From Candidatus Nomurabacteria bacterium (GTDB lineage Bacteria > Patescibacteriota > Minisyncoccia > Phycocordibacterales > SBAW01), in assembly GCA_943356495.1 (NCBI GenBank), contig CALRFF010000002.1, forward strand, positions 12,596 through 76,595: a stretch of 64,000 nucleotides of DNA. The letters are read 5' to 3'. Shown here in pieces: positions 1,736 to 45,217 of this stretch (within the stretch, counting starts at the first letter, position 1; each line of letters opens with the position of its first letter). The notes below the pieces were generated by a model, which was not told the DNA's origin, did no database searches, and worked only from the letters and a program-made list of their open reading frames with translations. A program made the position numbers and the translations under genes.

Positions 1736-3023
1736 GCGGTACATACACAAGCGCCGCTACAACCCAAGGGAACGGCGGTATCGTTATATGCGAAAGCGGC
1801 AGAACGCTTGCCGTCTGCGCCACAAACATAAGCCACCGCAATGCAAGGTCTGAAAGTAATGCGGGGAGAAGCCCGAGAAGCGGGTGTATAAACCCTAACA
1901 GGCCCGCAACAAAACCAAAAAGCATTGCAAACGGGATAAACGGCAACGCGACAAGGTTCGCGGGCAATGCGACGAGAGACAGCACGCCGGTGTAGTACAG
2001 CAGTGCGGGCAAAATGTACATTTGTACCGCAATAGTTGATGCGGCTATTGATTGCAGCTGCGGAAACCCGCCAAGAAACGGGCGGAGCCGCTGCTCGATT
2101 GCGGGCGCAAGCGTAATAAGTCCGAACGTTGCAAGAAAACTGAGTATAAAAGACGGATCATACAGTACGACCAACGGATTAAGAAGTACCAGCACTACCC
2201 CGGCGGCCGCAAGTGCGCGCAAAGCCACTGCCGGCCGCCGCAAATACCGCGCCAGCACGGCAATAAGCGCCATAATGCCCGCACGTAATGACGTGGAGCC
2301 TGCGCCGGTCATCAGCACAAAAAACAGCATTAGCCCGATGCCCAGCATGTACTGCGCGGTGCGCGGCAAAAATCCGGTGGCGCGCAACACCGCCTCGGCA
2401 ACAATAGAAATGTTGTAACCCGATAGCACGACCACGTGTATAAGCGAGGCAATAATAAACGCGGTCGTCAGCTCCTCCGACAGACCGCGCCGCTCGCCGA
2501 GCAAAATCCCCTCAAGTAAATGTGCGTCTTGCGCGGGCAGTATCCGCTCTATCGAGCGTTCAAACGCGTGCTTAGCGCTGTAGAGCAGACCGAACACCGT
2601 AGGATTGCTCTCTATCCGCTCTACCAACACCGCCTTTTGCATCAATGCCGAGACGCCGCGCACCCGCAAGTACCCGGGGTAATCAAAGACGCGTCCCGTG
2701 TCGGTAAGGAATGCCCGGGGCGTCTCAAGCGCACCGCGCAACACCACCGTATCGTTATACGAAACGGCTGTTCCTTTGGGCAACACGGCGAGCAGTGTAC
2801 CGCTGCCCGATACATCATCTACGCCGTGTACCCGTACCATAACGCGTACTGCCGCCTCGCGAACATCGGGATCGGCGCTTACCACGCCCTCAAGCATTAC
2901 GACGCTGCCTATATAACGCGGCAGACTTTGGGCCGCTTCGCTTGAAAATAAAAACTCTACCCGCACTATAAACAGCAGGGCGAAACACAAGACTCCTACT
3001 GCAAGCGCTGGTGCCTTCGGCAT
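1680..3023 (-). CDS. comEC: ComEC/Rec2-like DNA internalisation channel (short form, no C-terminal metallo-beta-lactamase domain)
   Basis: N-terminal DUF4131-like region plus polytopic competence domain (VVLSGYNISIVAEAV); 447 aa; start 2 nt after rnhA stop. Confidence 0.7.
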   Translation of the reverse strand: MPKAPALAVGVLCFALLFIVRVEFLFSSEAAQSLPRYIGSVVMLEGVVSADPDVREAAVRVMVRVHGVDDVSGSGTLLAVLPKGTAVSYNDTVVLRGALETPRAFLTDTGRVFDYPGYLRVRGVSALMQKAVLVERIESNPTVFGLLYSAKHAFERSIERILPAQDAHLLEGILLGERRGLSEELTTAFIIASLIHVVVLSGYNISIVAEAVLRATGFLPRTAQYMLGIGLMLFFVLMTGAGSTSLRAGIMALIAVLARYLRRPAVALRALAAAGVVLVLLNPLVVLYDPSFILSFLATFGLITLAPAIEQRLRPFLGGFPQLQSIAASTIAVQMYILPALLYYTGVLSLVALPANLVALPFIPFAMLFGFVAGLLGFIHPLLGLLPALLSDLALRWLMFVAQTASVLPLSHITIPPFPWVVAALVYVPLTWLAVRIYLRLPTNLNS

Positions 3024-3025
3024 GT

Positions 3026-3736
3026 CTACGATGAAAATGCGGCGATGATCTCGGCCTCTTCGGCCGCGGACAGTGCTTTTTTGTAGCGCGCGGAGCGGCC
3101 GCGCACGCGGGCCTCGCAGTCGGCCCATGTTTTATGTATCTCAACCACACCGTCGACGACACTTATGTATGAAAACGCTTTTGCTTTAGAGCGCGCACTC
3201 GAAGAGGATTTCGATTTTTGTTTTACGTGGTCAAACGACAGATCGGAAATATCTACCCCATAGCCGCTTGCCGGACCGGAGTACAACACTACTTTTTTAC
3301 CTTCCGCAAAGTCCGATGCAATAGTGTCGACGCGCTCGTTGCCCGCAATGCCTACGTGCCCACCTACATAACGCCACTCAATATCGCGCCCGTGCGCGGC
3401 CACGGCCGCGTCGAGCGACTGCCACAAGTCTTGGTTGATAACCGGTTTTTTGTCTTTGGTCTTCCAGTCGTTTTTCTTCCAGCCGTGTATCCACTTGGTA
3501 ATACCGTTAATAACGTACGAAGAGTCAGTATGGATAATTGTTTGTCCGCCCACGCCCACATGCCGCTCGCGCAGCGCTTCTATTGCAGCGCGCAACTCCA
3601 TACGATTGTTGGTAGTTAATTTTTCGTAGCCGCCAAGCTCGGTCACCTGCTCGCGGGCGAGCACAATAGCGCCCCACCCGCCCGGGCCGGGGTTGCCTTT
3701 GCTCGCGCCGTCGCAAAAAATCAAAATAGTTTCCAT
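3026..3736 (-). CDS. rnhA: Ribonuclease HI with C-terminal hybrid-binding-like (Cauli_VI type) domain
   Basis: CDGASKGNPGPGGWG, TDSSYVINGITKWIHGWKKN and GHVGIAGNERVD RNase H motifs; C-terminal YISVVDG..IHKTWADCEARVRGRSARYKK..EEAE resembles the RNase H1 hybrid-binding domain. Confidence 0.85.
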   Translation of the reverse strand: METILIFCDGASKGNPGPGGWGAIVLAREQVTELGGYEKLTTNNRMELRAAIEALRERHVGVGGQTIIHTDSSYVINGITKWIHGWKKNDWKTKDKKPVINQDLWQSLDAAVAAHGRDIEWRYVGGHVGIAGNERVDTIASDFAEGKKVVLYSGPASGYGVDISDLSFDHVKQKSKSSSSARSKAKAFSYISVVDGVVEIHKTWADCEARVRGRSARYKKALSAAEEAEIIAAFSS

Positions 3737-3738
3737 AC

Positions 3739-5403
3739 TTACAATATATCAACGACACGGATACGGCTCCCGCCGCGCCAGCCGGCCTCGACGTGCCCTA
3801 CCACATCAACTTTCTCCCCCGCTACCGCTTTTTTGGTAAACGACTCGGGTGTAGCAAAAAAAGACATTGCCTCTATAGCCGCACTGCCTTGCCCGAGCGT
3901 AAGCCCTAAATGATTATGTGTCTTACCAAAGGCGCGCACCGTAGTGATAGACACTGCAGGAAATATAAATAACGGCTTAGTGTTGCCCACGCCAAACGGC
4001 GCCAGTTGTTTTATGTTGTTGTACGCGCGGAACACTTCGGCAAGCTCGAGCTCGCGGTCAAGCAGTATCTCCTCGACGACGGCATTTTGGTTACGCACGC
4101 TTTCGTACGCGGCACTAAGTTTGGGGCCCAACTCATGCACCCGCTCTTCGAGCACCGAGAATCCTCCCGAGGCCGAATGTCCGCCGAAGTGGTCAAACAC
4201 TTCGCGTGCGGCGCCCATTAACTCCACCATATTGACCGAGCCATCGCTGCGGCAGCTGCCGCGCAGCTCCTCACCGCCCTGCCGGCCCCACAAAAATACC
4301 GGCTTTGCGTGCGCCTCGACCAATGTGTTGGCCACTAAACCTAAAATACCGGGGCGCCAGTTGGGGTTGCCCATGACTATAATGGGGCTTTTGGTCAAAT
4401 CGCTTTCCGACACACGCTTGTTGACCTCTTTAACCGTAGCGGCGACCAAGCCTTTGCGTTCGTCGTTAATGTGATTAAGGGCTATGGCGCGCTCCATTGC
4501 TTCTTCCTCGGTTGTCGCGGCAAGCAGCTCGGCGGCGGTTTGCGGCCGCTCCATGCGCGAAGCCGCGTTGATGCGAGGACTGAGCATAAACGTAATATCA
4601 TCCTCGGTAAGCGACGCGGTATGTATTTTTAGTAGCTTAAGCATTGCGGCGATGCCGGGGCGGCGGCCGCGGCGCATGACACGCAGCCCCGAGTGTGCGA
4701 GCATCCGGTTTTCCCCCACCAACGGCACCATGTCGCTCAGTGTCGCAATGCCCACCAAATCGAGCAGCCACTTTTCTTGCCCTTCGCCAAAGCCCGCGGG
4801 TCGCTCTTTGACGAGCAGCGCTTGCACCAACTTCCACGCGACGCCCGCGCCGCACAAACCGTCAAACGGATATTTGCTGTCGGGGCGCTTGGGGTTGATA
4901 AGCGCAAACGCTTCAGGCACGTGCTCGAGCGACGGAACCAGGTGGTGGTCGGTTACTATCGTGTCGATTCCTTTTTTGTTGGCGTGGGCAATTTGTGCGA
5001 CGTCGGTCGTGCCGAGATCGAGCGTAATCATTACTTTGACTCCCGCCGCGGCAAGTTCGTCTATGCCTTCGGTGTTCAACCCGTACCCTTCGGTGTGGCG
5101 ATGCGGTATGTAGTGTGTGACACTAAGCCCCATCGTGCGCAGAAACTCCACCAACATAACGCCGCCCGGTATCCCGTCGCAGTCGTAGTCGCTCCACACC
5201 GCCACCTTCTCGTTATTTTTTTTCGCCGAAAGAATCCGCTCTACCGCCTTGTGCATGTCAGGCAGTAAAAACGGGTCATGGCTGTCGCGGATAAAGTCGG
5301 GAGTAAGAAACTGCTCGTGCAAAAGAGGCTCAACGCCGCGGGAAAGAAGTAGATGTGCCACAAGGTCGTTATGCAGGGAATCGCGTACCTTGTAGGACCT
5401 CAT
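3739..5403 (-). CDS. recJ: Single-stranded-DNA-specific exonuclease RecJ
   Basis: DHH and DHHA1 motifs (SDYDCDGI, ITLDLG, TDHH); overlaps rnhA start, forming recJ-rnhA-comEC operon. Confidence 0.85.
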   Translation of the reverse strand: MRSYKVRDSLHNDLVAHLLLSRGVEPLLHEQFLTPDFIRDSHDPFLLPDMHKAVERILSAKKNNEKVAVWSDYDCDGIPGGVMLVEFLRTMGLSVTHYIPHRHTEGYGLNTEGIDELAAAGVKVMITLDLGTTDVAQIAHANKKGIDTIVTDHHLVPSLEHVPEAFALINPKRPDSKYPFDGLCGAGVAWKLVQALLVKERPAGFGEGQEKWLLDLVGIATLSDMVPLVGENRMLAHSGLRVMRRGRRPGIAAMLKLLKIHTASLTEDDITFMLSPRINAASRMERPQTAAELLAATTEEEAMERAIALNHINDERKGLVAATVKEVNKRVSESDLTKSPIIVMGNPNWRPGILGLVANTLVEAHAKPVFLWGRQGGEELRGSCRSDGSVNMVELMGAAREVFDHFGGHSASGGFSVLEERVHELGPKLSAAYESVRNQNAVVEEILLDRELELAEVFRAYNNIKQLAPFGVGNTKPLFIFPAVSITTVRAFGKTHNHLGLTLGQGSAAIEAMSFFATPESFTKKAVAGEKVDVVGHVEAGWRGGSRIRVVDIL

Positions 5404-5426
5404 TTCAAAAAGTATATACTGGAAGT

Positions 5427-5735
5427 ATGGAAAACTGCATTTTTTGTAAGATAGTGCGCGGTGAGATACCCACACACTTTACGTATGAAAACGAGTATGT
5501 GGTCGCCTTCCCCGATATACACCCCAAAGCGCCGGGGCATACGCTCGTAATCCCTAAGGAGCATCATCAATGGTTTTACGAAGTGCCTAAAGAGACCGCG
5601 GACGAGTGGTTTGGTGCGGCACAGATGCTCGGACTCAAATTAAAAGAGGAAACGGGAGCCGATTATTTGCAACTTTCCATCATCGGCAAAGACGTGCCCC
5701 ACGCGCACATCCACCTTATACCGCAGAAGCTCTAA
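5427..5735 (+). CDS. HIT-family (histidine triad) nucleotide hydrolase
   Basis: MENCIFCKI..., HAHIHLIP histidine triad; TATACT 6 nt upstream of ATG. Confidence 0.8.
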   Translation: MENCIFCKIVRGEIPTHFTYENEYVVAFPDIHPKAPGHTLVIPKEHHQWFYEVPKETADEWFGAAQMLGLKLKEETGADYLQLSIIGKDVPHAHIHLIPQKL

Positions 5736-6807
5736 GAGCCTCTATACCCGGCAGGGTGCCGTCGGCCAAAAATTGCAGCATTGCGCCGCCGCCGGTAGAA
5801 ACAAAAACTTTCTGCGGGTCAAATTTGTATTTTTCTACCGCCGCGGCGGTGTCTCCTCCGCCCACAACCGCCGTACCGGTGCTCTGTGTAAGTGCTCGTG
5901 CAAGCGCCTCGGTGCCCTCGGCATAGCCCTGCTCGTACATACCCAACGGGCCGTTCCACAACACAAACGGCGCTGTAGAAATTTTGCCGCTCCACAATGC
6001 GGCGGTTTGCGGACCGATATCTATCAGACTTTCGTTCTTGCGGATGTCTACCACGCTGCCCGAGCGCTCGGCGTTGCTGCCTATTTCGGCAAACACGGCG
6101 TCGGTCGGTACTACCAAACGCTCGTCAGCCGCTATTGCGGGCGGAACCGGTGTTGCCGACACCAGCGAACCGCCAAACGGGAGCCCGCGCGCTTTGATAA
6201 CATCGTTGGCAAGTGCGCCGCCAAGTAGCACTTCGGCATAGAGTGAAAGTAATTTCTGTATCAACGGCACCTTTGTTTCAAACTTTGCACCGCCTATAAC
6301 CGCTACCGAGCCTGCGGGCGGCGTAAGTGCGGCGGTCAGTTTAGTCACCTCTTCCATAAAACGCAGGCCCGCGTAGCTTGGGAGCAGCTTCGGTACGCCG
6401 GCAATCGAGGCGTGTGCGCGATGTGAGTCCGCAAACGCTTCGTTTACATACACATCGCCGAGGCTTGCCAGCTCTTGTGCAAGCCCCAGGTCGTTGGCCT
6501 CCTCGCGCGGGTCGAAGCGCAGGTTCTCGCGCATCTCAAACGGTACCGTGGTCAGTTCGCGGAGACGGGCCTCGACCGGCGCAAGACGCAAAGACTCAAC
6601 CACCTTGCCTTCGGGTCTTCCTAAACTTGTAAGAATGATTACGGTTGCGGCGCCCGCGGCATGGAGATAGTCGAGTGTAGGCAACACCGTGCGTATGCGC
6701 AGGTCGTTGGCCACTGCGCCGTCCTTAAGAGGCACATTAAAGTCCACGCGCACGAGCACGCGCTTGCCTGCAACCTCCGCCTCGGTAACACTTTTTATTT
6801 TTTGCAT
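5716..6807 (-). CDS. pgk: Phosphoglycerate kinase
   Basis: RVDFNVP N-terminal signature, 363 aa. Confidence 0.9.
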   Translation of the reverse strand: MQKIKSVTEAEVAGKRVLVRVDFNVPLKDGAVANDLRIRTVLPTLDYLHAAGAATVIILTSLGRPEGKVVESLRLAPVEARLRELTTVPFEMRENLRFDPREEANDLGLAQELASLGDVYVNEAFADSHRAHASIAGVPKLLPSYAGLRFMEEVTKLTAALTPPAGSVAVIGGAKFETKVPLIQKLLSLYAEVLLGGALANDVIKARGLPFGGSLVSATPVPPAIAADERLVVPTDAVFAEIGSNAERSGSVVDIRKNESLIDIGPQTAALWSGKISTAPFVLWNGPLGMYEQGYAEGTEALARALTQSTGTAVVGGGDTAAAVEKYKFDPQKVFVSTGGGAMLQFLADGTLPGIEALRASAV

Positions 6808-7553
6808 GCGGAAATAATTTCAACAAAGGAAGTAACATCGGCACTCGCGTGGCCTACAAGCAGGCCCGCGATGTCGCCCTCGGCGATAAGTGCGGCGGCG
6901 TTTGCAGGCTCCACCGAGCCGCCGTAGAGCACCGGCACCTTAAGCGCCGATTTACGGTCAAGCACGTCGGCCAATGTTTTGCGTATAAAAATCGCCATCT
7001 CGCGGACCTCGGCGGACGTTAGCGCGGAGTCTGCGTGCTTGCCTATCGCCCACACCGGTTCGTAGGCAACTACGAGCTTGCCGGCGAGCGACTGTGCGCC
7101 GGAGAGAGCTGACCGTATTTGTTCGGCGATAAAAGAAAAATGCCCTCCGTCTTCGGTGCGCTCCAACTCGCCGACACACAAGACCGGCACCAGCCCTGCC
7201 GATGCGGCAGCCACCAACTGGCCGTGCACCGCGACATTGTCCTCGCCTAGGGCGCGGCGCTCGGAGTGCCCGACAAGGGCAAACGTGCCTCCTGCGGTTT
7301 TAACCATGGCGCCGGACACCCCGCCGGTCTGCGCGCCGGAGAGCCCCGAAACTGTTTGAGCGCCCACACGCACCGCAGAACTTTCTAACATTGCCGACAC
7401 AACCGGAATAAAAGGTGCGGGAACGGCAAGTGCTACTTCGACACCGCTTATGCCGCGCACTTTACGCTTAAGCACACGGGCAAAGTCCTTGGCGGACTCG
7501 GCGCTCTCTATATACATCTTCCAGTTACCAATGACGAGACGTTTGCGGGTCAC
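6795..7553 (-). CDS. tpiA: Triosephosphate isomerase
   Basis: GNWKM, AYEPVWAIG, YGGSV motifs. Confidence 0.9.
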   Translation of the reverse strand: MTRKRLVIGNWKMYIESAESAKDFARVLKRKVRGISGVEVALAVPAPFIPVVSAMLESSAVRVGAQTVSGLSGAQTGGVSGAMVKTAGGTFALVGHSERRALGEDNVAVHGQLVAAASAGLVPVLCVGELERTEDGGHFSFIAEQIRSALSGAQSLAGKLVVAYEPVWAIGKHADSALTSAEVREMAIFIRKTLADVLDRKSALKVPVLYGGSVEPANAAALIAEGDIAGLLVGHASADVTSFVEIISACKK

Positions 7554-7568
7554 AGGGCAAATATACCA

Positions 7569-9050
7569 CTATTCGTTCCCTTCCTTTTCTTGAGCAAAAC
7601 GGAGCACTTCGGCTACGCTTGTTTGGCCGGCAGCGGCCTTATAGAGCGCGTCTTCGTACAGGTTAAGCAGAGGTTCGCCGCCCACCACCACTTCAAACAG
7701 GCCTACATGACCTTGATACCCACCGTCGCACTCGCTGCAACCGGTAACCGCCGGGTATCCGACCTCTTTCCAGATACGCTCTTTGTCTATAGCATCAGCT
7801 TCCTTAAGCGCGGCAAGCACTTTTGCAAAATCAGCATGCGGCTCGAGCGGCTCGAGGTGCCGGCGCTCAAGTGTGCGGGTAGCGCGGGTTTGTTTTTGAC
7901 ACAGTTTGCGCACCAGCCCCGTGCGTACGAGCACATCGGGCGCGGGGAAAAGCCGCTCATCGGCGACACCGGCAAGCACGAGTATGCCGCGCTTGCCTGC
8001 GGCAGCGGCAAGATCGGCGGTCGCTTGATCGGCAACGGCGTCGAGCATGACCACATCGGGGTCTTGGCGCAACACCGCGCGCAGCGCGCCGGCCATACTT
8101 AGACCCCCCGCGGGGTCGGCCTGAGTTTGTGCTACATACGGTAAACGGCTTGCTACTTTTTTTTCAACACTGGCGAGGGAAAGCTCGGGGGTATTGAGCA
8201 GGTCGAGCATCGTATACAACAGCGTAGTGCGGCCCGAACCTTGCGGGCCGGAGACCACCACCAATCCTTTACGGTCGTGTAATGCCGCACGTAAAGCCGT
8301 AGCGCCCGCACCGTGCAGACCCAAGCCTTCGAGCGTAAAGCCTTTGCTGGTCGAGTCTTCGCGCAACAACCTAAGTATCAATTTTTCGCCGCCCACTACC
8401 GGTACGGAAGAAACCCGTACCGACACCCCGACACCGAAGCCTAAGTCGGCTTTAAAACGGCCTTCTTGCGGCAAGGTTTTAGAACCGATGTTCGCAAGCG
8501 AGCGCACTGCGCCGATAACGCCGGCACCGGCGGCAGGGAGCTGCATTGCCTCGCGCAACTGTTTGCCGAGCCGATAGCGCACCAAGACGCCGCGGCCCGT
8601 AGTGTCTATATGGACTTCGCTCGCCTGTTGGGCCATCGCGTGGCGCAGCAACGTTTCGAGCATGGTGCGCGGATTAGACGACTGTGTTAACACGGCGCCG
8701 TACTTTTCCTTAAGGGTTTTTTGGTACAGCAGCAGCGCGCGGCGCAAAGAATCGGCGGTGGTAAGCCGCGGGACTACTCTTTTGCGCAGCTGCTGGCGCA
8801 AAGGCTCGAGCACCCCTAGGTCTTGTAGGTTAAGCAGTGCCACTTCGAGCGTGTCACCCTCTGTTTTATAGGCAACCAGCTGGTGAGCACGGCAGAGCGG
8901 CTCGGGCAGCATCTGTAAAGCCTCTACCGATATGTCGTCGCGCTCTAAGGTGACAAACGGTACCCCGAGCTCGTGGGCAAGCGCGTGCCGGCGCTCATCC
9001 TCGCTCAACAGTTCATTTTGTAGCCACCCTATAGAACGTTCCATTGACAC
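7569..9050 (-). CDS. PilB/GspE-family secretion ATPase paralog with degenerate catalytic motifs
   Basis: T2SE N-terminal domain and C-terminal C..C zinc-finger region as in GspE; Walker A reads GPQGSGRTT (Lys replaced by Arg); Asp/His boxes replaced (DAVAD.., GVADE instead of TLHTN). Confidence 0.7.
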   Translation of the reverse strand: MSMERSIGWLQNELLSEDERRHALAHELGVPFVTLERDDISVEALQMLPEPLCRAHQLVAYKTEGDTLEVALLNLQDLGVLEPLRQQLRKRVVPRLTTADSLRRALLLYQKTLKEKYGAVLTQSSNPRTMLETLLRHAMAQQASEVHIDTTGRGVLVRYRLGKQLREAMQLPAAGAGVIGAVRSLANIGSKTLPQEGRFKADLGFGVGVSVRVSSVPVVGGEKLILRLLREDSTSKGFTLEGLGLHGAGATALRAALHDRKGLVVVSGPQGSGRTTLLYTMLDLLNTPELSLASVEKKVASRLPYVAQTQADPAGGLSMAGALRAVLRQDPDVVMLDAVADQATADLAAAAGKRGILVLAGVADERLFPAPDVLVRTGLVRKLCQKQTRATRTLERRHLEPLEPHADFAKVLAALKEADAIDKERIWKEVGYPAVTGCSECDGGYQGHVGLFEVVVGGEPLLNLYEDALYKAAAGQTSVAEVLRFAQEKEGNE

Positions 9051-9181
9051 TATTATATAGTATGAAGTAGACTATAGAAGTCTGGAAACTGCCCTGAGGG
9101 GGCGGTTATTTTTTTACCGGATTTAAGGGAACACTTATGTCCCTTAACGGGATGAGAAAAATTAAATAACAAAATTAATAT

Positions 9182-10381
9182 ATGTTTGACCTTAAAGTAA
9201 TAAACTCGGTTTTGGGCGAGCTCGAGGAGGAGCGCGGCATACCGCGCGAGAAAGTAATCGAGGCTATCGAGGCCGCGCTTGCGACCGCGTACAAAAAAGA
9301 ATACGCAAAAAAAGGGCAGGTCATACGCGCGCAGATAGACCTTAACACCGGCACCACCGAATTTCAGCAGATAAAAACCGTAGTCGATGACACGACCGTG
9401 CGATTTATTACCGAAGAAGAGGAGGCAAACGAGGAGCCGCGGGAGCCCGAGCTAGATGCCGAGGGCAACCCTATCGCGCCCCTGCCCCGCTACAACGAAG
9501 AGCAGCATATAAAAATAGAAGACGCCAAGTTTATTAAACGTGACGCCAAAGTAGGCGACGACCTTGTCTTCCCGCTCGAGGCTAAGGGCGACTACGGCCG
9601 CATTGCCGCGCAAACCGCCAAGCAGGTAATCATCCAGAAAATTCGCGAGGCGGAAAAGGTCTCGGTCGTGGCCGAGTACGGTGCGCGCCAAGGCGAAATT
9701 GTGTCGGGTACCGTGCAGCGCATGGAGCGCGGCAACATTTATGTCGACTTGGGCCGCGCTACCGGCATACTCCCCTACGACGAGCAGATACCGGGCGAGC
9801 GTTACCGCCAAGGCGAGCGTATTCGCGCACTTTTGTACCAAGTAGAGGAGTCGCCCCGCGGTATCTACCTGCGCCTGTCGCGTGCCAAGGGCGAGTTTTT
9901 GGCGAAACTCTTCGAGATGGAGGCCCCCGAAGCCGCGCACGGCACAGTTGTCTTTAAGTCTATTGCGCGCGAGGCGGGCAGCCGCTCTAAAGTAGCCGTC
10001 GCCTCGACCGACCCGCATGTCGACCCGGTCGGCTCGTTGGTCGGCCAGCGCGGTGTCCGCGTATCGACCGTCACGTCCGAACTCGGCGGCGAAAAGATAG
10101 ACATCATCGAGTGGAACGAGGACCCGAAAGCATTTATCCAAGAAGCCCTTTCTCCGGCGCGGATTCTTGAGGTAAGCCTCGATGAAGAGGAGCACAAAGC
10201 GACCATTAAAGTCGCCGAGGACCAGCAGAGTCTCGCCATCGGCCGCGGCGGTCAGAACGTGCGCTTGGCGGCCAAGCTTACCGGCTGGCGCATCGACATC
10301 CAGTCGCAGGGCGGCAAGGTGGTAGAGGGGGTAGAAGGCAAAGACCTCCCCGCTCCCGAAGCTATCCCCCCGATTGAGTAA
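9182..10381 (+). CDS. nusA: Transcription termination/antitermination factor NusA
   Basis: N-terminal domain, S1 and two KH domains recognisable; 399 aa. Confidence 0.9.
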   Translation: MFDLKVINSVLGELEEERGIPREKVIEAIEAALATAYKKEYAKKGQVIRAQIDLNTGTTEFQQIKTVVDDTTVRFITEEEEANEEPREPELDAEGNPIAPLPRYNEEQHIKIEDAKFIKRDAKVGDDLVFPLEAKGDYGRIAAQTAKQVIIQKIREAEKVSVVAEYGARQGEIVSGTVQRMERGNIYVDLGRATGILPYDEQIPGERYRQGERIRALLYQVEESPRGIYLRLSRAKGEFLAKLFEMEAPEAAHGTVVFKSIAREAGSRSKVAVASTDPHVDPVGSLVGQRGVRVSTVTSELGGEKIDIIEWNEDPKAFIQEALSPARILEVSLDEEEHKATIKVAEDQQSLAIGRGGQNVRLAAKLTGWRIDIQSQGGKVVEGVEGKDLPAPEAIPPIE

Positions 10382-17542: not shown

Positions 17543-17613
17543 TGCGGGATGGGAGAATCGAACTCCCAACTACAGTTTGGAAAACTGTCGTTTTACCACT
17601 AAACTAATCCCGC
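17543..17613 (-). tRNA. tRNA-Gly (anticodon UCC)
   Basis: Cloverleaf: GCGGGAT acceptor, anticodon loop TTTCCAA, T-arm GGGAGTTCGATTCTCCC; CCA not encoded. Confidence 0.85.
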
Positions 17614-19655: not shown

Positions 19656-19729
19656 TGGTCGGGGCGCCCAGAATCGAACTGGGTCATTCTGCTCCCAAAG
19701 CAGACGTACTACCGGTATACGACGCCCCG
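19656..19729 (-). tRNA. tRNA-Pro (anticodon UGG)
   Basis: Acceptor CGGGGCG/CGCCCCG, anticodon loop TTTGGGA, T-arm GGTTCGATTCTGG; CCA encoded. Confidence 0.85.
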
Positions 19730-20332: not shown

Positions 20333-20406
20333 TGGTGCGGTCAGGGAGAATCGAACTCCCGCCTGCTCCTTGGCAAGGAGCCGTCCTACCACTAAACTAT
20401 GACCGC
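20333..20406 (-). tRNA. tRNA-Gly (anticodon GCC)
   Basis: GCGGTCA acceptor, anticodon loop TTGCCAA, T-arm GGGAGTTCGATTCTCCC, CCA encoded. Confidence 0.85.
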
Positions 20407-20514: not shown

Positions 20515-20586
20515 TGCCTCCGGAGGGACTCGAACCCCCAACAACTGCTTCGAAGGCAGCGATGATATCCATTTCACCACAGAGGC
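20515..20586 (-). tRNA. tRNA-Arg (anticodon UCG)
   Basis: GCCTCTG acceptor, anticodon loop CTTCGAA, T-arm GGGGGTTCGAGTCCCTC; CCA not encoded. Confidence 0.8.
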
Positions 20587-25830: not shown

Positions 25831-26202
25831 ATGAACGACCAAACAATGAAACTGTGCCCGCAGGGTGTTTGCGTGTGCGGCGCCAGTTCGACAAACAACT
25901 ACCAGCACGACCCGGACTGCCGCTCCAATGCGCCGTGGCCGATTGAGCACACAGCCCATTACTGGAACTACGGTGCCCAAGATGCACTGAGCGGCAAGCT
26001 ACACCAACTCGTGGGTATGCTTAAGCTTACCCAGCCGAGCGTTCAGCAGAAAGTCGCTTATATGCAGGGGTGGTTCTGCACTCGGCGCAAGCTGCATCGC
26101 GGGTCGGAGCGCACTCTGCAGTCGCTCGACCAAGCCATCGACCTTGCCAAAGGCCGACAGCAGCGCGACCACGTCACGCTCGATCCCAGCCCCGCCACAT
26201 AG
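25831..26202 (+). CDS. Cys-rich hypothetical protein (123 aa), monocistronic
   Basis: GGGGAGAG Shine-Dalgarno 3 nt before ATG (unlike most neighbours); flanked by terminators on both sides. Confidence 0.45.
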   Translation: MNDQTMKLCPQGVCVCGASSTNNYQHDPDCRSNAPWPIEHTAHYWNYGAQDALSGKLHQLVGMLKLTQPSVQQKVAYMQGWFCTRRKLHRGSERTLQSLDQAIDLAKGRQQRDHVTLDPSPAT

Positions 26203-26220
26203 GCGGGGCTTTTTCTTTTT
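26189..26220 (+). terminator. Rho-independent terminator (stop codon lies in loop)
   Basis: GCCCCGCC acatag GCGGGGC then TTTTTCTTTTT. Confidence 0.85.
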
Positions 26221-26245
26221 ACGTGCTTTCTGTTACAGTTTCACG

Positions 26246-28360
26246 ATGAAAACTAAAAGTTATTCGCTTGAGGTGGGCGGCAAGCAGATGGTCGCCGAGT
26301 TTACCGACCTGGCCGAACAGGCTAATGGCTCGGTAATACTCCGCTACGGCGACACGGCTGTACTCGCCACTGCGGTTATGAGCGGCCGCACACGCGACGA
26401 CATCGATTATTTTCCCCTCACCGTCGATTACGAGGAGCGCTTCTACGCCGCAGGTACCATAGGCGGCAGCCGTTTTATGCGCCGCGAGGGCCGGCCGTCT
26501 GACGCCGCAATACTCAGCGGCCGCATCGTTGACCGTACTATCCGCCCGCTCTTCCCTCAACATATCCGCAACGAAGTACAAGTAGTCATTACTATGTTGG
26601 CGCTGGGGGACGAAAAACCCGCGACGATCGCGGTCAACGCTGCGTCTATTGCGCTCGCGGTGTCTGACATACCGTGGAATGGACCCGTTGCGGCAGTGCA
26701 CTTGGTCGAAAAAAACTTCGACCTTGTTGCCTGCGGCAAAGACGGCACTATTAATATGATCGAGGTCGGCGCGCAGCAGGTTGACGAGGCAACCATTGCA
26801 AACGGTTTTGCCAAGTCGGTAGAGGAGCACAACAAAATCTTGGCGTGGCAAAAACAAATTATCGCCGAGCTGGGCAAACCTAAGCGCGATGCGACCAAAC
26901 CCGAGTTGCCGGCCGAGGTTGCGCAACTGTTTGAGGCCGAATTTGCCGCCAAGGTAACGCCCGCGGTCTTTTGCGGCATTGCCGGCAAAGACGAAATCCA
27001 TCACCTGACCGACGCGTGGATGGCCCGCGCTAAAGAGATAGAGACGCTTAAAGACATTAAATCCGGCGTACTCAAACGTTTTATCGAAGACAAAGTAGAC
27101 GAAGAGATCCATCGCGGCGCAATAGAGGACAACAAGCGCGCCGACAACCGCCCGTTCGACCAGCTGCGCCCGCTGTTTGCCAAAGCCGGCGGCGTTTCGC
27201 CGGTACTGCACGGCTCGGGGATCTTTTACCGCGGCGGTACGCACGTGTTTACCGCGCTTACCCTCGGCGGCCCCGGCGACAGCCAAGTCATCGATACGAT
27301 GGAGGAGCACGACGGTAAAAAACGCTTTATGCATCACTACAACTTCCCGCCGTACTCGGCGGGGGAAACCGGCCGCATGGGCGGTGTTAACCGCCGCGCC
27401 ACCGGCCACGGTGCCCTTGCCGAAAAAGCTTTGGCCGCGGTTATACCCGATGCAGTCGACTTCCCCTACACCATACGCTTGGTCTCCGAGTGTTTGGCGA
27501 GCAACGGCTCGACCTCGATGGGCTCGGCTTGTGCATCGACGCTCGCGCTCATGGACGGCGGCGTACCGATAAAAGCGCCGGTTGCGGGTATTGCGATGGG
27601 TGTCATGACCCACAACGGCAAACACAAAGTGATGACCGATATCCAAGGCCCCGAAGACGAATTTGGCGGCATGGACTTTAAGGTGGCGGGTACGCGCAAC
27701 GGGGTTACCGCGATACAGCTCGACATCAAACTCGACGGCATCCCGCTCGAGGTACTGACCGAGGCTCTGCAGGGCGCAAAAGTTGCCCGCGCGCAGATAC
27801 TCGACGTGATAGAGAAGGAAATTGGTGCACCGCGCGCAACCATTAGCCCACGCGCGCCCGAAATTTTGACTATGCGCGTCAAACCCGACCAGATCGGTAT
27901 GGTTATCGGTGGTGGTGGCAAAACAATCAACGGTATTAAAGATGTATGCCAGGTAGATGATATTACGATAGAAGACGACGGCTCGATATTTATCACCGGC
28001 AAAAACGGTAGCGCCCAAAAAGCCAAAGTCATGATCGAGGCTATTGTTAAAGAGTACAAAGCGGGCGAGGTCTACGACGGCGAAGTTACCCGCATGATGG
28101 ACTTTGGCGCGTTTATGCGCGTCGGGGTGGGCAAAGATGCCGAGGGGCTGGTGCATGTTTCTGAAGTGGCGCCGTTTCGTATCGACAAAATAGGCACGGC
28201 GCTTAAAGTGGGGGACAAAGTCCGCGTTATGATAAAGGAGATAGACGACAAAGGACGCATCAACCTGTCTATCAAAGCCGTAGACCCCGAGTGGGCAACA
28301 AAAAAAGGCCTTACCCCAAGCACCAATGCCGGACCAACCAGCAGACCCCCTAGATCCTAA
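26246..28360 (+). CDS. pnp: Polyribonucleotide nucleotidyltransferase (PNPase)
   Basis: Two RNase PH domains, KH (MVIGGGGKTINGI) and S1 domains; start at MKTKSYSL with TACAGT 6 nt upstream. Confidence 0.9.
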   Translation: MKTKSYSLEVGGKQMVAEFTDLAEQANGSVILRYGDTAVLATAVMSGRTRDDIDYFPLTVDYEERFYAAGTIGGSRFMRREGRPSDAAILSGRIVDRTIRPLFPQHIRNEVQVVITMLALGDEKPATIAVNAASIALAVSDIPWNGPVAAVHLVEKNFDLVACGKDGTINMIEVGAQQVDEATIANGFAKSVEEHNKILAWQKQIIAELGKPKRDATKPELPAEVAQLFEAEFAAKVTPAVFCGIAGKDEIHHLTDAWMARAKEIETLKDIKSGVLKRFIEDKVDEEIHRGAIEDNKRADNRPFDQLRPLFAKAGGVSPVLHGSGIFYRGGTHVFTALTLGGPGDSQVIDTMEEHDGKKRFMHHYNFPPYSAGETGRMGGVNRRATGHGALAEKALAAVIPDAVDFPYTIRLVSECLASNGSTSMGSACASTLALMDGGVPIKAPVAGIAMGVMTHNGKHKVMTDIQGPEDEFGGMDFKVAGTRNGVTAIQLDIKLDGIPLEVLTEALQGAKVARAQILDVIEKEIGAPRATISPRAPEILTMRVKPDQIGMVIGGGGKTINGIKDVCQVDDITIEDDGSIFITGKNGSAQKAKVMIEAIVKEYKAGEVYDGEVTRMMDFGAFMRVGVGKDAEGLVHVSEVAPFRIDKIGTALKVGDKVRVMIKEIDDKGRINLSIKAVDPEWATKKGLTPSTNAGPTSRPPRS

Positions 28361-29435
28361 GAGCTTTCTCCTCCCCAAAAAAGAGGGCGGTCCTTCGCCT
28401 ATCTCTGCCCAGCGCGTAAACGCGGGGGAGCTTTTGGCACAGGAAGTTAAAGCTGAATTACCGAAAGCGCCAGTGCCTGTCGCCAGCGCTCCAGCCGCAC
28501 CAAAAAAAGAAGAGTCGCAGGTGCGCGCAGTCCAAACATACACCAGCGATATCAGCCGCGTCGTCGAGCAAGGCGGTGTTTCGACCGTTTCTATCGCCGC
28601 GGCCGAGGCCGAGCGCCGCCACAAAGGCACCGAGGATGGGGTGGTAGAAGTGGCGCGCCAACCCGCGCAAGACGGCCCTTCGCGCCTGCGCTTGGTGCTT
28701 ATCGCCACCAGTATTATCTTTGTGTTGTCGGGCATTATTATACTGGCCGCGTTTTTGATACCGCCGGCTGCGCCACAGCAAGCGGCAGAGCCGCAGACGC
28801 CGTTTATTGCGGTCGATAAAACAACCCCTATTGCCACCGACGGCACGGGTGCACGCGATATTGTAATGACCGAGCTCGAGGCGGCACGCGAGCAGGTTAA
28901 CCTTTCCTTAGGGTTGATAGAGCGTCTGCTGCCCGCCACCCCCAACGCCATAACCGGCCTTGCCGACGCACTACCCGCACAAAAGTTTTTTGAGCTTATC
29001 GCCCCCAACATGCCGGTGGACCTGCTGCGCACCGTAGCGCCGGTGTTTTTGCTGGGCGTGCACTCGTTTGATGAAAACCAGTCCCTGTTGATACTGCGCG
29101 TCGACTCCTACCAGCAGGCCTACTCGGGGTTGCTCGCGTGGGAGCACACCATGCCGCAGGAGCTTGCACCGCTGTTTACCCGCCGGCCAAGCCTGCACAT
29201 ACCGGGTACCGCGCCGGCGCCCACCGCCTCGACCACTCCGCAGTTTATACAAACAGGGTTTGTCGACCGCGTGGTCGAAAACCATGACGCCCGCGTGTTG
29301 GAAAATAGTACCGGCGACATATTGCTGCTGTGGACATTCTTGGACCGCAATACGGTCATTATTACGACCAACGAGTTTACCTTGCGCGAGGTATTGCGCC
29401 GCCTTACCACCGCCGCATTGGTGCCGAGGATGTAG
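28326..29435 (+). CDS. Single-pass membrane protein of unknown function
   Basis: 369 aa; Pro/Ala-rich N-terminus, one TM helix, conserved-looking C-terminal domain; overlaps pnp 3' end in another frame. Confidence 0.5.
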   Translation: MPDQPADPLDPKSFLLPKKEGGPSPISAQRVNAGELLAQEVKAELPKAPVPVASAPAAPKKEESQVRAVQTYTSDISRVVEQGGVSTVSIAAAEAERRHKGTEDGVVEVARQPAQDGPSRLRLVLIATSIIFVLSGIIILAAFLIPPAAPQQAAEPQTPFIAVDKTTPIATDGTGARDIVMTELEAAREQVNLSLGLIERLLPATPNAITGLADALPAQKFFELIAPNMPVDLLRTVAPVFLLGVHSFDENQSLLILRVDSYQQAYSGLLAWEHTMPQELAPLFTRRPSLHIPGTAPAPTASTTPQFIQTGFVDRVVENHDARVLENSTGDILLLWTFLDRNTVIITTNEFTLREVLRRLTTAALVPRM

Positions 29436-38182: not shown

Positions 38183-39076
38183 ATGAGCCTTCAGACATAC
38201 CTGCCCAGTGCAAAATTTGCCGTCATGGCGGGGGCGATAGCACTCTCGGGCGGGTTAGTGGTAGCGGCGCAGTATGTAACCAACCCCGCGCCCAGTACTG
38301 CGGGGCTTAGCGCCGAAGCGCAGGCGGCCCAAGCGGCGCAGTCGGCAAACTGGCAGCAGGTCTTGCGCGACATAGAGTCCCAGTCGGGTATTAAAGCGCC
38401 CGAGGCGCCCAGTACCGACACGGTTAACGCCCTGCTTACCGCGGCGCAAAGCACTAATCTTACAACCCAAGTAGGCAGAACCTTGCTGGTAAGCCTTAGT
38501 AACGCCAACGCCCAAGGGCTTGGCAGCGATATCCCGACACAAGAGCAGCTCATTGCCGAAGCAACCGCCCAGCTCGACGCGCAAGCAAGCGGGCCGGCAT
38601 ATGCAGTAGGCGATTTGCAGATAACAGTCCAAAGCAGCGCGTCGGTGCGAGCCTATGGCAACGCCATAATGAAGGCACTTAACGCTCACGGCGGCGCGAG
38701 CGCCCAAAACACCTATCTTGCGATAGGCGCTATCACCGACTCCCAAAATGCCGCGGCTATTGCGGAGCTAAAAACAATAGGGGCGGCGTACCGTGCGCTT
38801 GCCGAGGCTATTGCCGAAACCCCCGTACCCCAAACCTACTCTCCGTTGCACCTACAACTCGCCAACGACTTTGCCGCTATCGCCGCAAGCTATCCGGACA
38901 TGCAAACCATGCTCGACGACCCACTGCGCGGACTTGCGGGGGTGCAGCGCTACAGCGCTCTTATTGACGAAGCGAGGCGCGTGTTAACAAACATCGCTCA
39001 GTTATTGAGTAAAGACGGTATACTTTTCAGTAAAGACGAGCCAGGCGCTGCCTGGAGCGGCTTGCTTGCCACGTAA
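38183..39076 (+). CDS. Operon gene 1: membrane-anchored Ala/Gln-rich protein of unknown function
   Basis: N-terminal TM helix (AVMAGAIALSGGLVVAA), 297 aa, no recognised domain. Confidence 0.55.
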   Translation: MSLQTYLPSAKFAVMAGAIALSGGLVVAAQYVTNPAPSTAGLSAEAQAAQAAQSANWQQVLRDIESQSGIKAPEAPSTDTVNALLTAAQSTNLTTQVGRTLLVSLSNANAQGLGSDIPTQEQLIAEATAQLDAQASGPAYAVGDLQITVQSSASVRAYGNAIMKALNAHGGASAQNTYLAIGAITDSQNAAAIAELKTIGAAYRALAEAIAETPVPQTYSPLHLQLANDFAAIAASYPDMQTMLDDPLRGLAGVQRYSALIDEARRVLTNIAQLLSKDGILFSKDEPGAAWSGLLAT

Positions 39077-39081
39077 CTTTC

Positions 39082-41046
39082 ATGAACCGACGAACCCTTA
39101 TCACTATCCTGATCGCGGTCCTTGTGGCCGTCGTCATCGGGGCGCTGTGGTTGTGGTTTTTTAGAGGGGTCGGGACCGCGCCAGCGCCGCAAACAGGCTC
39201 CTTCGGCACCGGACAAACCCGCAATACCGGAACCACCGGCGCAAGCACCACGCCCACCAACATACCGAGCTCTATCGGACAGACGACTTCTACGGGAGGG
39301 TCAGTTACCCAAAGCGGCATTTATGTTTCGGGTATAACCGGCGGCGGCGCAGGCACCACCACAGGCGCCGCTGCGGTGCCCGGCGTTAGTTGGCTGGCGG
39401 GGGGCGCGGGCGGGATAAGCGGCGGATCGGGTACCGCATTTAACCCCAGCACCATAAACCAACTTAACAACGGACAGGTGGGCGGGAGCGTTAATGTGCT
39501 GGGCACCTTTACTACCCCGGGCGGGAGCAGCTCCGGCGGGGGAGGTCTCGGCATCGGCGGCTCGGCGGCCATTATCGCCGGCACTGCGGTCGCTTGCACC
39601 GCATTTTTACTGGGCGGAGCCGCCGGCATGTTTACCAGCTCGTCGTTTGTCGCCGTACAAGTTAACGCACCCACCGACAACAATAAAAAGTTTATGGACT
39701 GCATCGCGCGCACTATTGCGCGCGCGGCGATACAGCAAATAACGGCAAGCGTCGTCAACTGGATAAACTCCGGATTTAACGGCAAGCCCTCCTTTGTCAC
39801 CAACTACCAAAGCTTTTTTGCGAACGTGGCCGACCAAGCGGCGGGAGAGTTTATAAAAACGCAGACCAACTTTGCGCCGTACTGCACCCCGTTCCGCACG
39901 CAAATACAAATAGCGCTCGCCCAAAGCTACGCGCGCCGCAACAACGCGCAGTCGTGTACCCTTTCTACTTTATTAAGCGGTACAGGCATAAACCTATTCG
40001 GTAAAAACACGGGGGGCACTACCGGTTGGGGAAATTTTATCTCCTTTACCACCGTACCGAGCAACAACCCCTACGGCTCCTACATGAGCGCGCAGGCACA
40101 ACTGCAAAGCACGCTCTTGCAAGCAAACCAAAATGCTAATCGCAACATTTCTACCGGCGGGTTCCTTAACTTCCAGCAGCCGTACGATTGCCAAGCCACC
40201 GTGCCGCAGGCGGGAGAAACAGCGGGCACTAATGGCGGCGGAGGTGCGGGGGGCAGTATAAACTTCGGCGGCTCATCACAAAACTACGGCTATTCCTGCC
40301 CGTCCAACTGCAAGTGCAAAATTACGACTCCCGGAGGCATTATCGAAAGTTCATTAAGCAAAACGCTCAGCGTGTCGCAAGACACGCTTACGCAGGCGGG
40401 CATCTCGGGCAGTTTTGACGCTATTATCAGCGCGCTTATAAGCCAATTGATGACCCGCGCGCTCCAAGGCGGCGTGTCTAACCTTAGCGGCACCAGCGGC
40501 TATGCTTCGTACTACCTGACCGCCGACCAGCAGGCGGCGCAAACAAACGGGCAAGGGCTCCTTACCCAACTGCAAGGGTTGGTGGTAATGGCGCAGCAGT
40601 TCGGACAAAACAAGCAGGGCAGCGCGCAGGATATACAAAATGCGCAGAGCCAACTTAATGGCCTTGCCAACTGCTGGCAAACGGCCGCGTCCTCGACGGC
40701 ACTTACCGATACCAAACAAAATATCGCCTTCAACAACGCGCAGAACGCGCTTGCAACATTGCGCTCTTACGACGGGCAAATTGACAGTATCAACGGCCAG
40801 ATAACCCGGGCCAACGCGGCCGTGGCGCTGTTGCAAGACCTACAGACTCGTACGCTCGGCGTCGGTTCGACGGCAGAGGTGTCGGCTATACAAAACGCGC
40901 TTGCCGCCGCCGAGGCGCGGGGCGGTATCATAGGACAAGCGGACATTACCACCGCGGCGCAAGACCGCACGACTCTGCAATCGCAGCTAAACTCTCTCAG
41001 CAGAACAGTAGACTCGCAGCTCTCCCAATGCTATGCGTTCCAATAA
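39082..41046 (+). CDS. Operon gene 2: large surface protein with TM anchor, Gly/Thr-rich linker, Cys-containing globular region and C-terminal Gln-rich coiled coil
   Basis: 654 aa; N-terminal TM (LITILIAVLVAVVIGALWLWFF); paired cysteines; no recognised domain. Confidence 0.6.
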   Translation: MNRRTLITILIAVLVAVVIGALWLWFFRGVGTAPAPQTGSFGTGQTRNTGTTGASTTPTNIPSSIGQTTSTGGSVTQSGIYVSGITGGGAGTTTGAAAVPGVSWLAGGAGGISGGSGTAFNPSTINQLNNGQVGGSVNVLGTFTTPGGSSSGGGGLGIGGSAAIIAGTAVACTAFLLGGAAGMFTSSSFVAVQVNAPTDNNKKFMDCIARTIARAAIQQITASVVNWINSGFNGKPSFVTNYQSFFANVADQAAGEFIKTQTNFAPYCTPFRTQIQIALAQSYARRNNAQSCTLSTLLSGTGINLFGKNTGGTTGWGNFISFTTVPSNNPYGSYMSAQAQLQSTLLQANQNANRNISTGGFLNFQQPYDCQATVPQAGETAGTNGGGGAGGSINFGGSSQNYGYSCPSNCKCKITTPGGIIESSLSKTLSVSQDTLTQAGISGSFDAIISALISQLMTRALQGGVSNLSGTSGYASYYLTADQQAAQTNGQGLLTQLQGLVVMAQQFGQNKQGSAQDIQNAQSQLNGLANCWQTAASSTALTDTKQNIAFNNAQNALATLRSYDGQIDSINGQITRANAAVALLQDLQTRTLGVGSTAEVSAIQNALAAAEARGGIIGQADITTAAQDRTTLQSQLNSLSRTVDSQLSQCYAFQ

Positions 41047-43519: not shown

Positions 43520-43540
43520 TTACCCCTAACCACAAGGCTT

Positions 43541-44092
43541 ATGGACACTACCGTTGCAGCACAAATAGAAAAACGCCTTGCCGAGCTCCCTGAAGACGTC
43601 CGCGCGGCTGTTATGTCGGTCGAGTGGGAAGAAAAGGTACGACAGATAGCCGGCAAACACGCCTTGCATATAGACCAGACCGGCGCGCTGGGCGACACCA
43701 CTCTTATGGCGATGCTCGGGTTCTTCGATATGGCCGACTTTCCGGTCCATCTCACTGAGGAGCTTAAAATACCTACTGATCAAGCCGCCGCCATAGGGGG
43801 AGAGATAACGGCTGAGGTCTTCAGACCCATACGCGAGTCGCTCAAAAAGTTTACCGAAGGAAACAAAGCGACTATACCCGCTCCGACGGCACCCAAACCC
43901 GACCTTGTAGCCGCCGAGGCCATGTTACAAGCCAAAACAGTGAGTGCACCCGCTCCGGCGGTGCCCGCCCAACCCGTAGTACCCCAAAAAACTGTCCCTA
44001 CAGCGGCGCCTGTCATGCCGCCAATAGCAAAACAAGAGCCGCCGAAGCCCGGCGCGTATGCCGCCGACCCGTACCGCGAGCCGCCGCTATGA
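43541..44092 (+). CDS. Operon gene 4: soluble protein with Pro-rich C-terminus, unknown function
   Basis: 183 aa, no TM, no recognised domain. Confidence 0.5.
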   Translation: MDTTVAAQIEKRLAELPEDVRAAVMSVEWEEKVRQIAGKHALHIDQTGALGDTTLMAMLGFFDMADFPVHLTEELKIPTDQAAAIGGEITAEVFRPIRESLKKFTEGNKATIPAPTAPKPDLVAAEAMLQAKTVSAPAPAVPAQPVVPQKTVPTAAPVMPPIAKQEPPKPGAYAADPYREPPL

Positions 44093-44116
44093 AAACCTAC
44101 GCTATACTTGTAAGTA

Positions 44117-44557
44117 ATGGCGCAGTACCAAGTACCCCAGTTTATTGAGGTTGAGGATAAGATTTTCGGCCCCCTGACGCTCAAGCAATTTATCTATCTT
44201 GCCGGCGGGGCGGGGATATGTCTTATGTTCTTTACGCTTCTGCCGTTTTGGCTGATGTTTATCTTGTCTGTACCGGTTATGTCCTTTTCGGCGGCACTCG
44301 CCTTTTACAAAATAAACGGGCGGCCGTTTATCGTGGCGCTTGAGCATGCGGCATCATATACCTTTGGCAGCAAGCTTTATTTGTGGAAGCAGCGCGAGGC
44401 AAAAGCCAGTACCGAAGTGCAAAACGCCCCCGCGACAGCTGCGCCGGTGCCCAGACTCTCTAACAGCAAGCTTAAAGATCTGTCGTGGTCGCTCAATATT
44501 AAAGACCGCAACCAAATGGGCGTCACGTCGACGGAGCGCAGCGGGTTTGAAGTCTAA
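44117..44557 (+). CDS. Operon gene 5: PrgI-family (VirB3-like) two-TM protein
   Basis: N-terminus YQVPQFIEVEDKIFGPLTLKQFIYLAGG followed by two TM helices, the PrgI/VirB3 signature; sits immediately upstream of VirB4 as in Gram-positive T4SS. Confidence 0.6.
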   Translation: MAQYQVPQFIEVEDKIFGPLTLKQFIYLAGGAGICLMFFTLLPFWLMFILSVPVMSFSAALAFYKINGRPFIVALEHAASYTFGSKLYLWKQREAKASTEVQNAPATAAPVPRLSNSKLKDLSWSLNIKDRNQMGVTSTERSGFEV

Positions 44558-44562
44558 TTACT

Positions 44563-45216: not shown

Positions 45217-45217
45217 T

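Follow-up and report, generated by a model that had tools for sequence, protein, structure and literature searches.

A catalytically degenerate PilB/GspE homologue in a conserved genomic slot of Parcubacteria

In the ultra-small bacteria of the Candidate Phyla Radiation (CPR)/Patescibacteria, a central part in host attachment and DNA uptake is ascribed to type IV pili. The gene considered here lies at 7569–9050 on the minus strand of a 64-kb stretch of a Candidatus Nomurabacteria contig (CALRFF010000002.1; the whole stretch of 64,000 nt is referred to as the window) and encodes a 493-amino acid (aa) homologue of the assembly ATPases PilB and GspE in which the catalytic motifs have degenerated. 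The PilB/PilF proteins, represented by PilB of Geobacter metallireducens (PDB 5TSH) and PilF of Thermus thermophilus, share its N1E/MshEN-N2E-CTE architecture (sequence E ~1e-42, Foldseek E 1e-28). The best full-length structural match is to GspE/EpsE, in the complex of GspE with the cytoplasmic domain of GspL (4PHT), and extends to the N1E domain through which GspE binds GspL, a PilM-like protein. GspE differs from the protein of the window in being active as an ATPase and in keeping its zinc site intact, and no GspL/PilM gene is present near 7569–9050. The roles of individual residues have been described for G. metallireducens PilB (GmPilB), in which the Walker A lysine binds phosphate, E357 coordinates Mg, E395 is the catalytic glutamate, H413 and H420 serve in gamma-phosphate contact and inter-chain coupling, and R271 and R286 are the arginine fingers (PMC5424180).

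Two proteins of this family likewise occur together in one cell in the case of PilB and TfpB of Acinetobacter baylyi (PMC8213720) and of PilT and PilU (PMC6821130), where one of the two may assist or depend on the other. In both pairs the ATPase motifs of each partner are intact, whereas at the present locus one of the two proteins is degenerate and appears to derive from a second system that has been lost. The Walker boxes of PilB proteins from Saccharibacteria have been described in one paper as well conserved, and full-text literature searches returned no description of a catalytically degenerate PilB/GspE or of the Parcubacteria family described below.

Fold, domains and remnants of the active site

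The open reading frame (ORF) gives 493 aa from a GTG start, while the public protein P0001 is called from an ATG two codons later at 9044 and is, over its 491 aa, 100% identical. Pfam places an MshEN domain at aa 28–112 (53.6 bits, E 2.3e-14), corresponding to the N1E domain at 8715–8969, and T2SSE (PF00437) at aa 130–468 (179.7 bits, E 8.5e-53); all coordinates in this section are on the minus strand. An AlphaFold2 (AF2) model built with the family alignment reached a predicted local distance difference test (pLDDT) score of 93.4 and a predicted template modelling score (pTM) of 0.86, and its best Foldseek matches in the PDB were full-length GspE (4PHT), PilF, EpsE and PilB (E 1e-31 to 1e-25). 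With N1E/MshEN, N2E and a RecA-like CTE all recognizable, the protein belongs to the GspE/PilB superfamily by both fold and homology. It scores below the NCBIfam equivalog cutoffs for PilB (TIGR02538, 205.9 bits against 675.65) and for GspE (TIGR02533, 189.5 bits against 630.25).

Residue roles were mapped from GmPilB by alignment to the PDB entry, using our own residue count (an offset of 14 applies to the chain numbering). The Walker A motif (8223–8249) reads GPQGSGRTT rather than GxxxxGK[ST], with the lysine replaced by Arg274 (codon CGC at 8229–8231). Such a lysine-to-arginine change classically abolishes hydrolysis, as in RecA K72R, and typically spares binding. The degenerate Asp box (8142–8174) reads ASVEKKVASRL where the canonical counterpart is ITIEDPIEYHL; its first glutamate is kept as E296, a residue invariant across the family, and the equivalent of the Mg-coordinating E357 is Ala300. 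In the region of Walker B and the catalytic glutamate (8028–8063) the sequence DPDVVMLDAVAD stands in place of the canonical DPDIIMVGEIRD, so that the atypical Walker B (hhhhG) and the glutamate that follows it have become VVMLD-A, with Asp337 for the glycine and Ala338 at the position of E395. The former His box (7956–7994) reads KRGILVLAGVADE compared with the canonical TGHLVFSTLHTN, departs from the pattern TGHxxxxTxHT, and lacks the equivalents of both H413 and H420. Within the tetracysteine zinc subdomain (7728–7901), C384, C438 and C441 remain and the second cysteine of the first pair is glutamine. The arginine fingers are retained as R198 (in EGRF) and R212 (in VRVS), equivalent to R271 and R286 of GmPilB and located at 8415–8459.

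Alignment with its nearest active relative shows that ~32 N-terminal, ~33 linker, 17 post-His-box and 22 near-C-terminal residues are missing from the protein. What it has in common with PilB/PilF beyond the fold is the pair of arginine fingers and the first Asp-box glutamate; it differs from them in the Walker A arginine, in the absence of the Mg-coordinating and catalytic glutamates, the His-box histidines and one zinc cysteine, in the 17 aa deleted beyond the His box, and in having no adjoining pilC, pilM or pilin gene. Because five defining catalytic or zinc features are missing and the equivalog thresholds are not reached, PilB is not an appropriate annotation for the protein. A stretch of eight consecutive A residues (GAA AAA AAA; 8157–8164) within the Asp-box codons is a potential hot spot for slippage or sequencing error, and the frame across it is intact.

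An earlier, sequence-only reading of the window had reported the ORF, the motif GPQGSGRTT and the loss of the Asp, Walker B and His boxes, all of which proved correct on re-reading and alignment. Its description of the gene product as a catalytically degenerate PilB/GspE homologue is borne out by Pfam, AF2 and Foldseek together with the loss of motifs. The GspE N-domain that it assigned is recovered as Pfam MshEN; the C-terminal zinc finger that it also assigned does not hold, as only three of the four cysteines are left.

Conservation across the family

A word-indexed search returned 267 homologues at E ≤ 1e-10, and those carrying a taxon name are all from Patescibacteria/Parcubacteria (Adlerbacteria, Kaiserbacteria and Paceibacterota). 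Conservation was assessed in a family alignment (A1) of 109 full-length members that are 40–74% identical to the protein of the window. The His box is missing in 109 of the 109, and likewise in a further 114 clusters among the best 150 matches of a profile search against 1.84 billion cluster representatives (50%-identity clusters). At Walker A, GxxxxGK[ST] is found in 53 aligned members, arginine (GxxxxGR[ST]) in 15, valine in 12 and a different residue in 8, while in ~20 the P-loop is shortened or lengthened; on a neighbour-joining (NJ) tree the lysine has been lost independently at least 12 times. The catalytic glutamate is kept in 14 members. Retention of the arginine fingers is more widespread (R198 in 72, R212 in 81), and the position of R381, equivalent to an inter-chain arginine, is basic in 92.

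Conservation is concentrated elsewhere in the protein. Twenty alignment columns are invariant, many of them within N1E, which is the best conserved domain (mean conservation 0.64; invariant P49, E50, R54 and L73). The ratio of nonsynonymous to synonymous differences (pN/pS) against four orthologues is 0.27–0.35, as uncorrected values with pS ~0.65 and hence near saturation. The codon CGC for Arg274 is identical in orthologues from four independent assemblies (L001, L003, L005 and L006), and since it is also two changes away from the lysine codons, a sequencing error was rejected as the source of the arginine. Conservation of the substitution in orthologues, which the sequence-only reading had proposed as a check, was thus found, both in these four and as GxxxxGR[ST] in the 15 family members. 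The opposite outcome, a canonical lysine or frameshifted relatives, was not seen in those four, which share the arginine codon; the full-length ORFs of the orthologues are intact and pN/pS is as given above. A decaying pseudogene was also rejected, given more than 100 full-length intact relatives down to 40% identity, a pN/pS of ~0.3, invariant residues and a confident AF2 model. Homology, lost catalytic residues and purifying selection, which together define a pseudoenzyme, are all observed. The gene thus belongs to a large and old family that is under selection, but not for catalysis.

The acidic residues of the nucleotide site show a further pattern. Either position 300 (8151–8153) or position 337 (8040–8042) is acidic in most members, with exactly one of the two acidic in 94 of 109 and at least one in 100 (Fisher p 4.5e-15 for exclusivity, uncorrected for phylogeny), and each position has changed at least 11–14 times on the tree. 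The protein of the window, with Ala300 and Asp337, has the ‘moved’ arrangement of the carboxylate, and four family members have recreated a classical hhhhDE Walker B. This pattern suggests that the Mg ligand has been relocated. Because the lysine-to-arginine change is conservative and one acidic residue is present at 300 or 337, Mg-nucleotide binding is still hinted at in most members, and it may be retained in the protein of the window. For the binding competence that the sequence-only reading had proposed, the carboxylate swap gives support of an indirect kind.

The syntenic slot and the second PilB

In all 11 fetched loci with a degenerate gene (40–74% identity), nusA is transcribed away from the gene, which is followed by tpiA, pgk, (HIT), recJ, rnhA and comEC. 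The window repeats this order in the opposite orientation: nusA (9182–10381, plus strand) diverges from the gene and is the fixed left-hand anchor of the slot, tpiA (6795–7553, minus strand; Pfam TIM, synteny) begins 15 nt past the stop codon of the 7569–9050 gene, and pgk (5716–6807, minus strand; Pfam PGK) overlaps tpiA by 13 nt. The wider conserved block around the slot includes genes for HU, RNase Y, ClpP, trigger factor and a pyrophosphatase. Between comEC and recJ the window has an RNase H gene at ~3000–3720 (minus strand), an arrangement shared with the relatives; in simple ORF lists this gene is masked by an over-extended comEC ORF.

The same slot holds an active pilB operon in at least six loci (L017, L019, L020, L021, L023 and L026), which were among the matches listed when metagenomes were scanned with less degenerate family members as seeds. 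There, by Pfam, the gene diverging from nusA is pilB, followed by pilC (T2SSF), a gene for a 587-aa pilin-like protein, an N-methyl pilin gene, a 472-aa gene, tpiA, pgk and recJ. The motifs of the active-slot PilBs are fully canonical (GPTGSGK[ST]T, TIEDPIEY, VGEIRD and TGHLV..T.HTN), and these proteins score 525–566 bits on a hidden Markov model (HMM) of the degenerate family compared with 363–389 bits on that of the group of the window's canonical PilB. The 7569–9050 protein is 35% identical to the active syntenic PilB (E 1e-95), its closest active relative among the matches listed. The two share the slot and the loss of the tetracysteine motif, which had already gone in the active syntenic PilBs, but the active protein is ~90 aa longer and has pilC and pilin genes downstream.

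Across the fetched loci, pilC and pilin genes accompany canonical motifs in 6 of 6 and pilC is absent alongside degenerate motifs in 11 of 11; no relics of pilC or the pilins were detectable in the degenerate loci. The NJ trees set the lineage of the window's canonical PilB apart from the active-slot PilBs and the degenerate family with 99–100% bootstrap. By synteny, HMM score and these trees, the 7569–9050 gene is best described as the positional orthologue of a separate, active pilB lineage that resides between nusA and tpiA. Basal members without pilC (e.g. P0094 and L012) retain the Walker A lysine and sometimes the catalytic glutamate, and for this reason the His box and the operon appear to have been lost first, with the other residues decaying later and differently in each sublineage, an order that is partly resolved.

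The absence of pilC and the pilin genes from the degenerate loci leaves the gene adjoining tpiA, and the glycolytic ‘operon’ of 7569–9050, tpiA and pgk would thus be a deletion scar within a conserved housekeeping block. Co-transcription of the gene with tpiA and pgk is plausible because of the 15-nt gap and the 13-nt overlap; scans of 5300–9400 for promoters and terminators gave counts at chance level. In three loci (L009, L010 and L012) other DNA lies between the degenerate gene and tpiA, with the ORF still intact. The neighbourhood with tpiA and pgk described in the sequence-only reading stands, while a functional coupling to glycolysis was rejected in favour of the conserved block and the pilC/pilin deletion as the source of the adjacency.

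The window's canonical PilB is a protein of 560 aa encoded at 61256–62938 on the minus strand (Pfam T2SSE 380 bits, all motifs canonical). It had been taken as a paralogue of the degenerate protein; the relationship is neither close nor recent, with 26% identity between the two (E 5e-33) compared with 35% to the active syntenic PilB, and with the canonical protein in another lineage. Its Pfam MshEN match is the weaker of the two (E 2e-5 compared with 2e-14). Both PilB types are found on one contig in 5 of 5 checkable cases (contigs of 323328, 129211, 651177, 207289 and 143664 nt, identical in both lists), and in the same genome pairs the canonical PilBs are 78–90% identical compared with 40–74% for the degenerate protein, which is the faster evolving in 5 of 5. 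In its rate of evolution the degenerate protein is comparable to ComEC or TpiA and far exceeds NusA or ClpP. The co-occurrence is compatible with a partnership, and the canonical PilB may be regarded as a possible partner, not as the closest relative.

A tblastn search (E ≤ 0.01) of the 64-kb window returned no pilC, pilM, pilN, pilO, pilin or third T2SSE-type gene, and a regular-expression search of the window found no prepilin motif, in agreement with the earlier statement that neither PilB has pilus genes near it. Beside the 11 degenerate orthologues, too, there is no pilC, pilM, pilN, pilO or pilin gene. The canonical gene is flanked by ruvB and tsaE, and relatives of its lineage on other CPR contigs (L036, L047 and L063) also lie near tsaE or ruvB, sometimes with pilM. 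The search of cluster representatives also returned ~1000-aa proteins made of two tandem PilB modules (P0263, P0276, P0278, P0286, P0300, P0303, P0311, P0323, P0327, P0332, P0333, P0339 and P0345), with canonical Walker A and His boxes in both halves, that belong to the lineage of the window's canonical PilB. They are, as judged from their sequences, covalently linked PilB dimers; the idea that one dead PilB had fused with one live PilB was considered and rejected, both halves being canonical.

A related pilB operon (L015/L016) adjoins the same housekeeping block in inverted orientation and is preceded by genes for a histidine kinase and a response regulator, with pilM, pilN and pilO following it. 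Such a kinase/regulator pair lies directly upstream of pilB-pilC in L015/L016 (6688–8011), L024, L034, L037, L039 and L091, which suggests two-component control of those CPR pili.

Elsewhere in the window, a conjugation or type IV secretion-like cluster occupies 38183–50392 on the plus strand and includes an 828-aa multi-pass membrane protein (41033–43519), a PrgI-family protein (44117–44557) and a VirB4/TraG-type P-loop ATPase (45218–47035), all on the plus strand, with several large ORFs lacking a Pfam match. No evidence emerged for a link between this cluster and the 7569–9050 gene; the two are 30 kb apart and unrelated in relatives. The longest ORF in the window, of 937 aa (26219–29032, minus strand), is antisense to the gene for polynucleotide phosphorylase (26144–28360, plus strand), has a nonsense-like composition and is almost certainly spurious. 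An rRNA beneath it was also considered and rejected; the sole Rfam matches in the window are four tRNA genes on the minus strand (17543–17613, 19659–19729, 20336–20406 and 20515–20586). The region 50376–54718, with jag, yidC and rnpA on the minus strand beside dnaA (51971–53419) and dnaN (53621–54718) on the plus strand, all assigned by eye from translations, is probably the replication origin region.

Candidate roles of the degenerate protein

The reading that we favour, and consider likely, is that the protein is the orphaned, degenerate descendant of the assembly ATPase from a second operon, one for a type IV pilus or a pseudopilus, and now acts as a non-motor scaffold or regulator. The ancestral operon would have lain between nusA and tpiA-pgk-recJ in the gene order still seen in the active slot, from pilB and pilC to the 472-aa gene. 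In the lineage of the window, deletion of pilC and the pilin genes would have placed the ATPase gene beside tpiA, and the ATPase would then have lost, stepwise, the His box, the catalytic glutamate, the Asp-box Mg-glutamate and the Walker A lysine, along with four sequence segments. A protein of N1E, N2E and CTE would have stayed under purifying selection with its motor function presumably gone. Binding of Mg-nucleotide may have outlasted hydrolysis, given the conservative arginine, the arginine fingers and a carboxylate at the classical Walker B position. Serving as a scaffold or regulator without catalysis, the protein would dock partners through its conserved N1E, possibly in a nucleotide-sensitive manner; the candidate partners would be the canonical PilB or, from the pilus system that is left, PilM or PilC, and the target the remaining pilus/DNA-uptake machinery. 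Two systems provide works-like analogies only. The archaellum protein ArlH/FlaH partners the ArlI motor and binds ATP but hydrolyses it poorly or not at all, although it is KaiC/RecA-like and not PilB-like, and the PilB-like ATPase ComGA of Bacillus has further, regulatory roles apart from that of a motor, although it is catalytically intact and encoded in the comG operon.

Several points weigh against this reading. NJ bootstrap is only 30–49% at the node where the degenerate family meets the active syntenic PilBs, and orthology with the active-slot PilBs leans mainly on synteny and HMM scores. The order of pilC loss and motif loss is partly resolved, with the fetched loci excluding the intermediates P0315, P0293 and P0342, in which the His box is missing and the lysine is kept. 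The nucleotide binding, oligomeric state and partners of the protein are all inferred. At the position of the Walker A lysine 21 of the 109 members are uncharged (V/T/N/I/S/G), and ~20 have the altered P-loop lengths noted above; the valine, threonine and asparagine variants together with the altered lengths suggest that nucleotide binding is dispensable in some sublineages and hence in parts of the family. A more specific proposal, in which the family is a clade-wide ‘dead motor’ that binds but does not hydrolyse nucleotide and regulates or scaffolds the remaining pilus/DNA-uptake machinery, by docking on PilM/PilC or by mixing into rings of the canonical PilB, is tentative and rather doubtful.

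Among the alternatives, a mixed motor, raised in the sequence-only reading as a regulatory subunit paired with the canonical PilB, in which hetero-hexamers or stacked rings contain both the degenerate protein and the canonical PilB (61256–62938) and the former modulates the extension of pili, would account for the shared contig in 5 of 5 genome pairs and for the retention of N2E, CTE, the arginine fingers and the basic residue at R381. It is nevertheless unlikely, because the two proteins belong to well separated lineages (99–100% bootstrap) at 26% identity and because the 17-residue deletion lies beside the former His box, the region of inter-chain coupling in PilB (PMC5424180). The carboxylates at 300 and 337, present in 100 of 109 members, nearly mutually exclusive and independently changed, together with the four recreated hhhhDE motifs, would fit an active ATPase with a rewired site, in which D337 is the Mg ligand, arginine replaces the lysine and the catalytic base is supplied by some other residue. 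The alanine at the catalytic glutamate, the lack of histidines to contact the gamma-phosphate, the general expectation for a Walker A lysine-to-arginine change, and the recurrent lysine loss and P-loop length changes, which indicate no constraint on catalysis, make this very improbable.

Equally remote is a functionless relic whose ORF persists as carrier of the promoter or 5’ region of tpiA-pgk. The position 15 nt upstream of tpiA, with divergent nusA on the other side, and an evolutionary rate above that of most neighbours would suit it, but a promoter role would not preserve a frame of 493 codons, and the ORF stays full length across more than 100 lineages, at identities as low as 40%, with a pN/pS of ~0.3, invariant residues and a pLDDT of 93, and remains intact in L009, L010 and L012 despite their separation from tpiA. 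The strength of the MshEN match, greater than that of the canonical PilB, and the high conservation of N1E could also point to a signalling adaptor that binds the second messenger cyclic di-GMP (c-di-GMP) through its MshEN-type domain. The MshEN c-di-GMP domain consists of two tandem 24-residue motifs of the form RLGxx(L)(L)xxG(L)(L)xxxxLxxxLxxQ. The ~32 N-terminal residues with the first of these are missing from the protein, though present in the active orthologue and the intermediates, and the second is represented by one partial copy (aa 7–28) as judged by eye, so that a receptor of this kind is scarcely to be expected.

If true, the ‘dead motor’ proposal would make this the first description of a pseudo-ATPase subunit in a motor of the PilB/GspE type, and the swap that takes the Mg-carboxylate out of the Asp box and into the classical position in Walker B would represent a remodelled, switch-like nucleotide site and not simple decay. 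The favoured descent from a lost pilus operon would offer a dated, stepwise natural series in which a secretion ATPase became a pseudoenzyme after the loss of its machine, and with active and dead orthologues occupying one genomic slot, the function of the dead PilB becomes directly testable. Genome surveys take ‘PilB’ genes as evidence of a pilus system. In this clade of Parcubacteria the PilB-annotated gene is predicted, from its motifs, to be incapable of acting as a motor and has no adjoining platform or pilin partners; counts of PilB would therefore overestimate the number of pilus systems across the clade.

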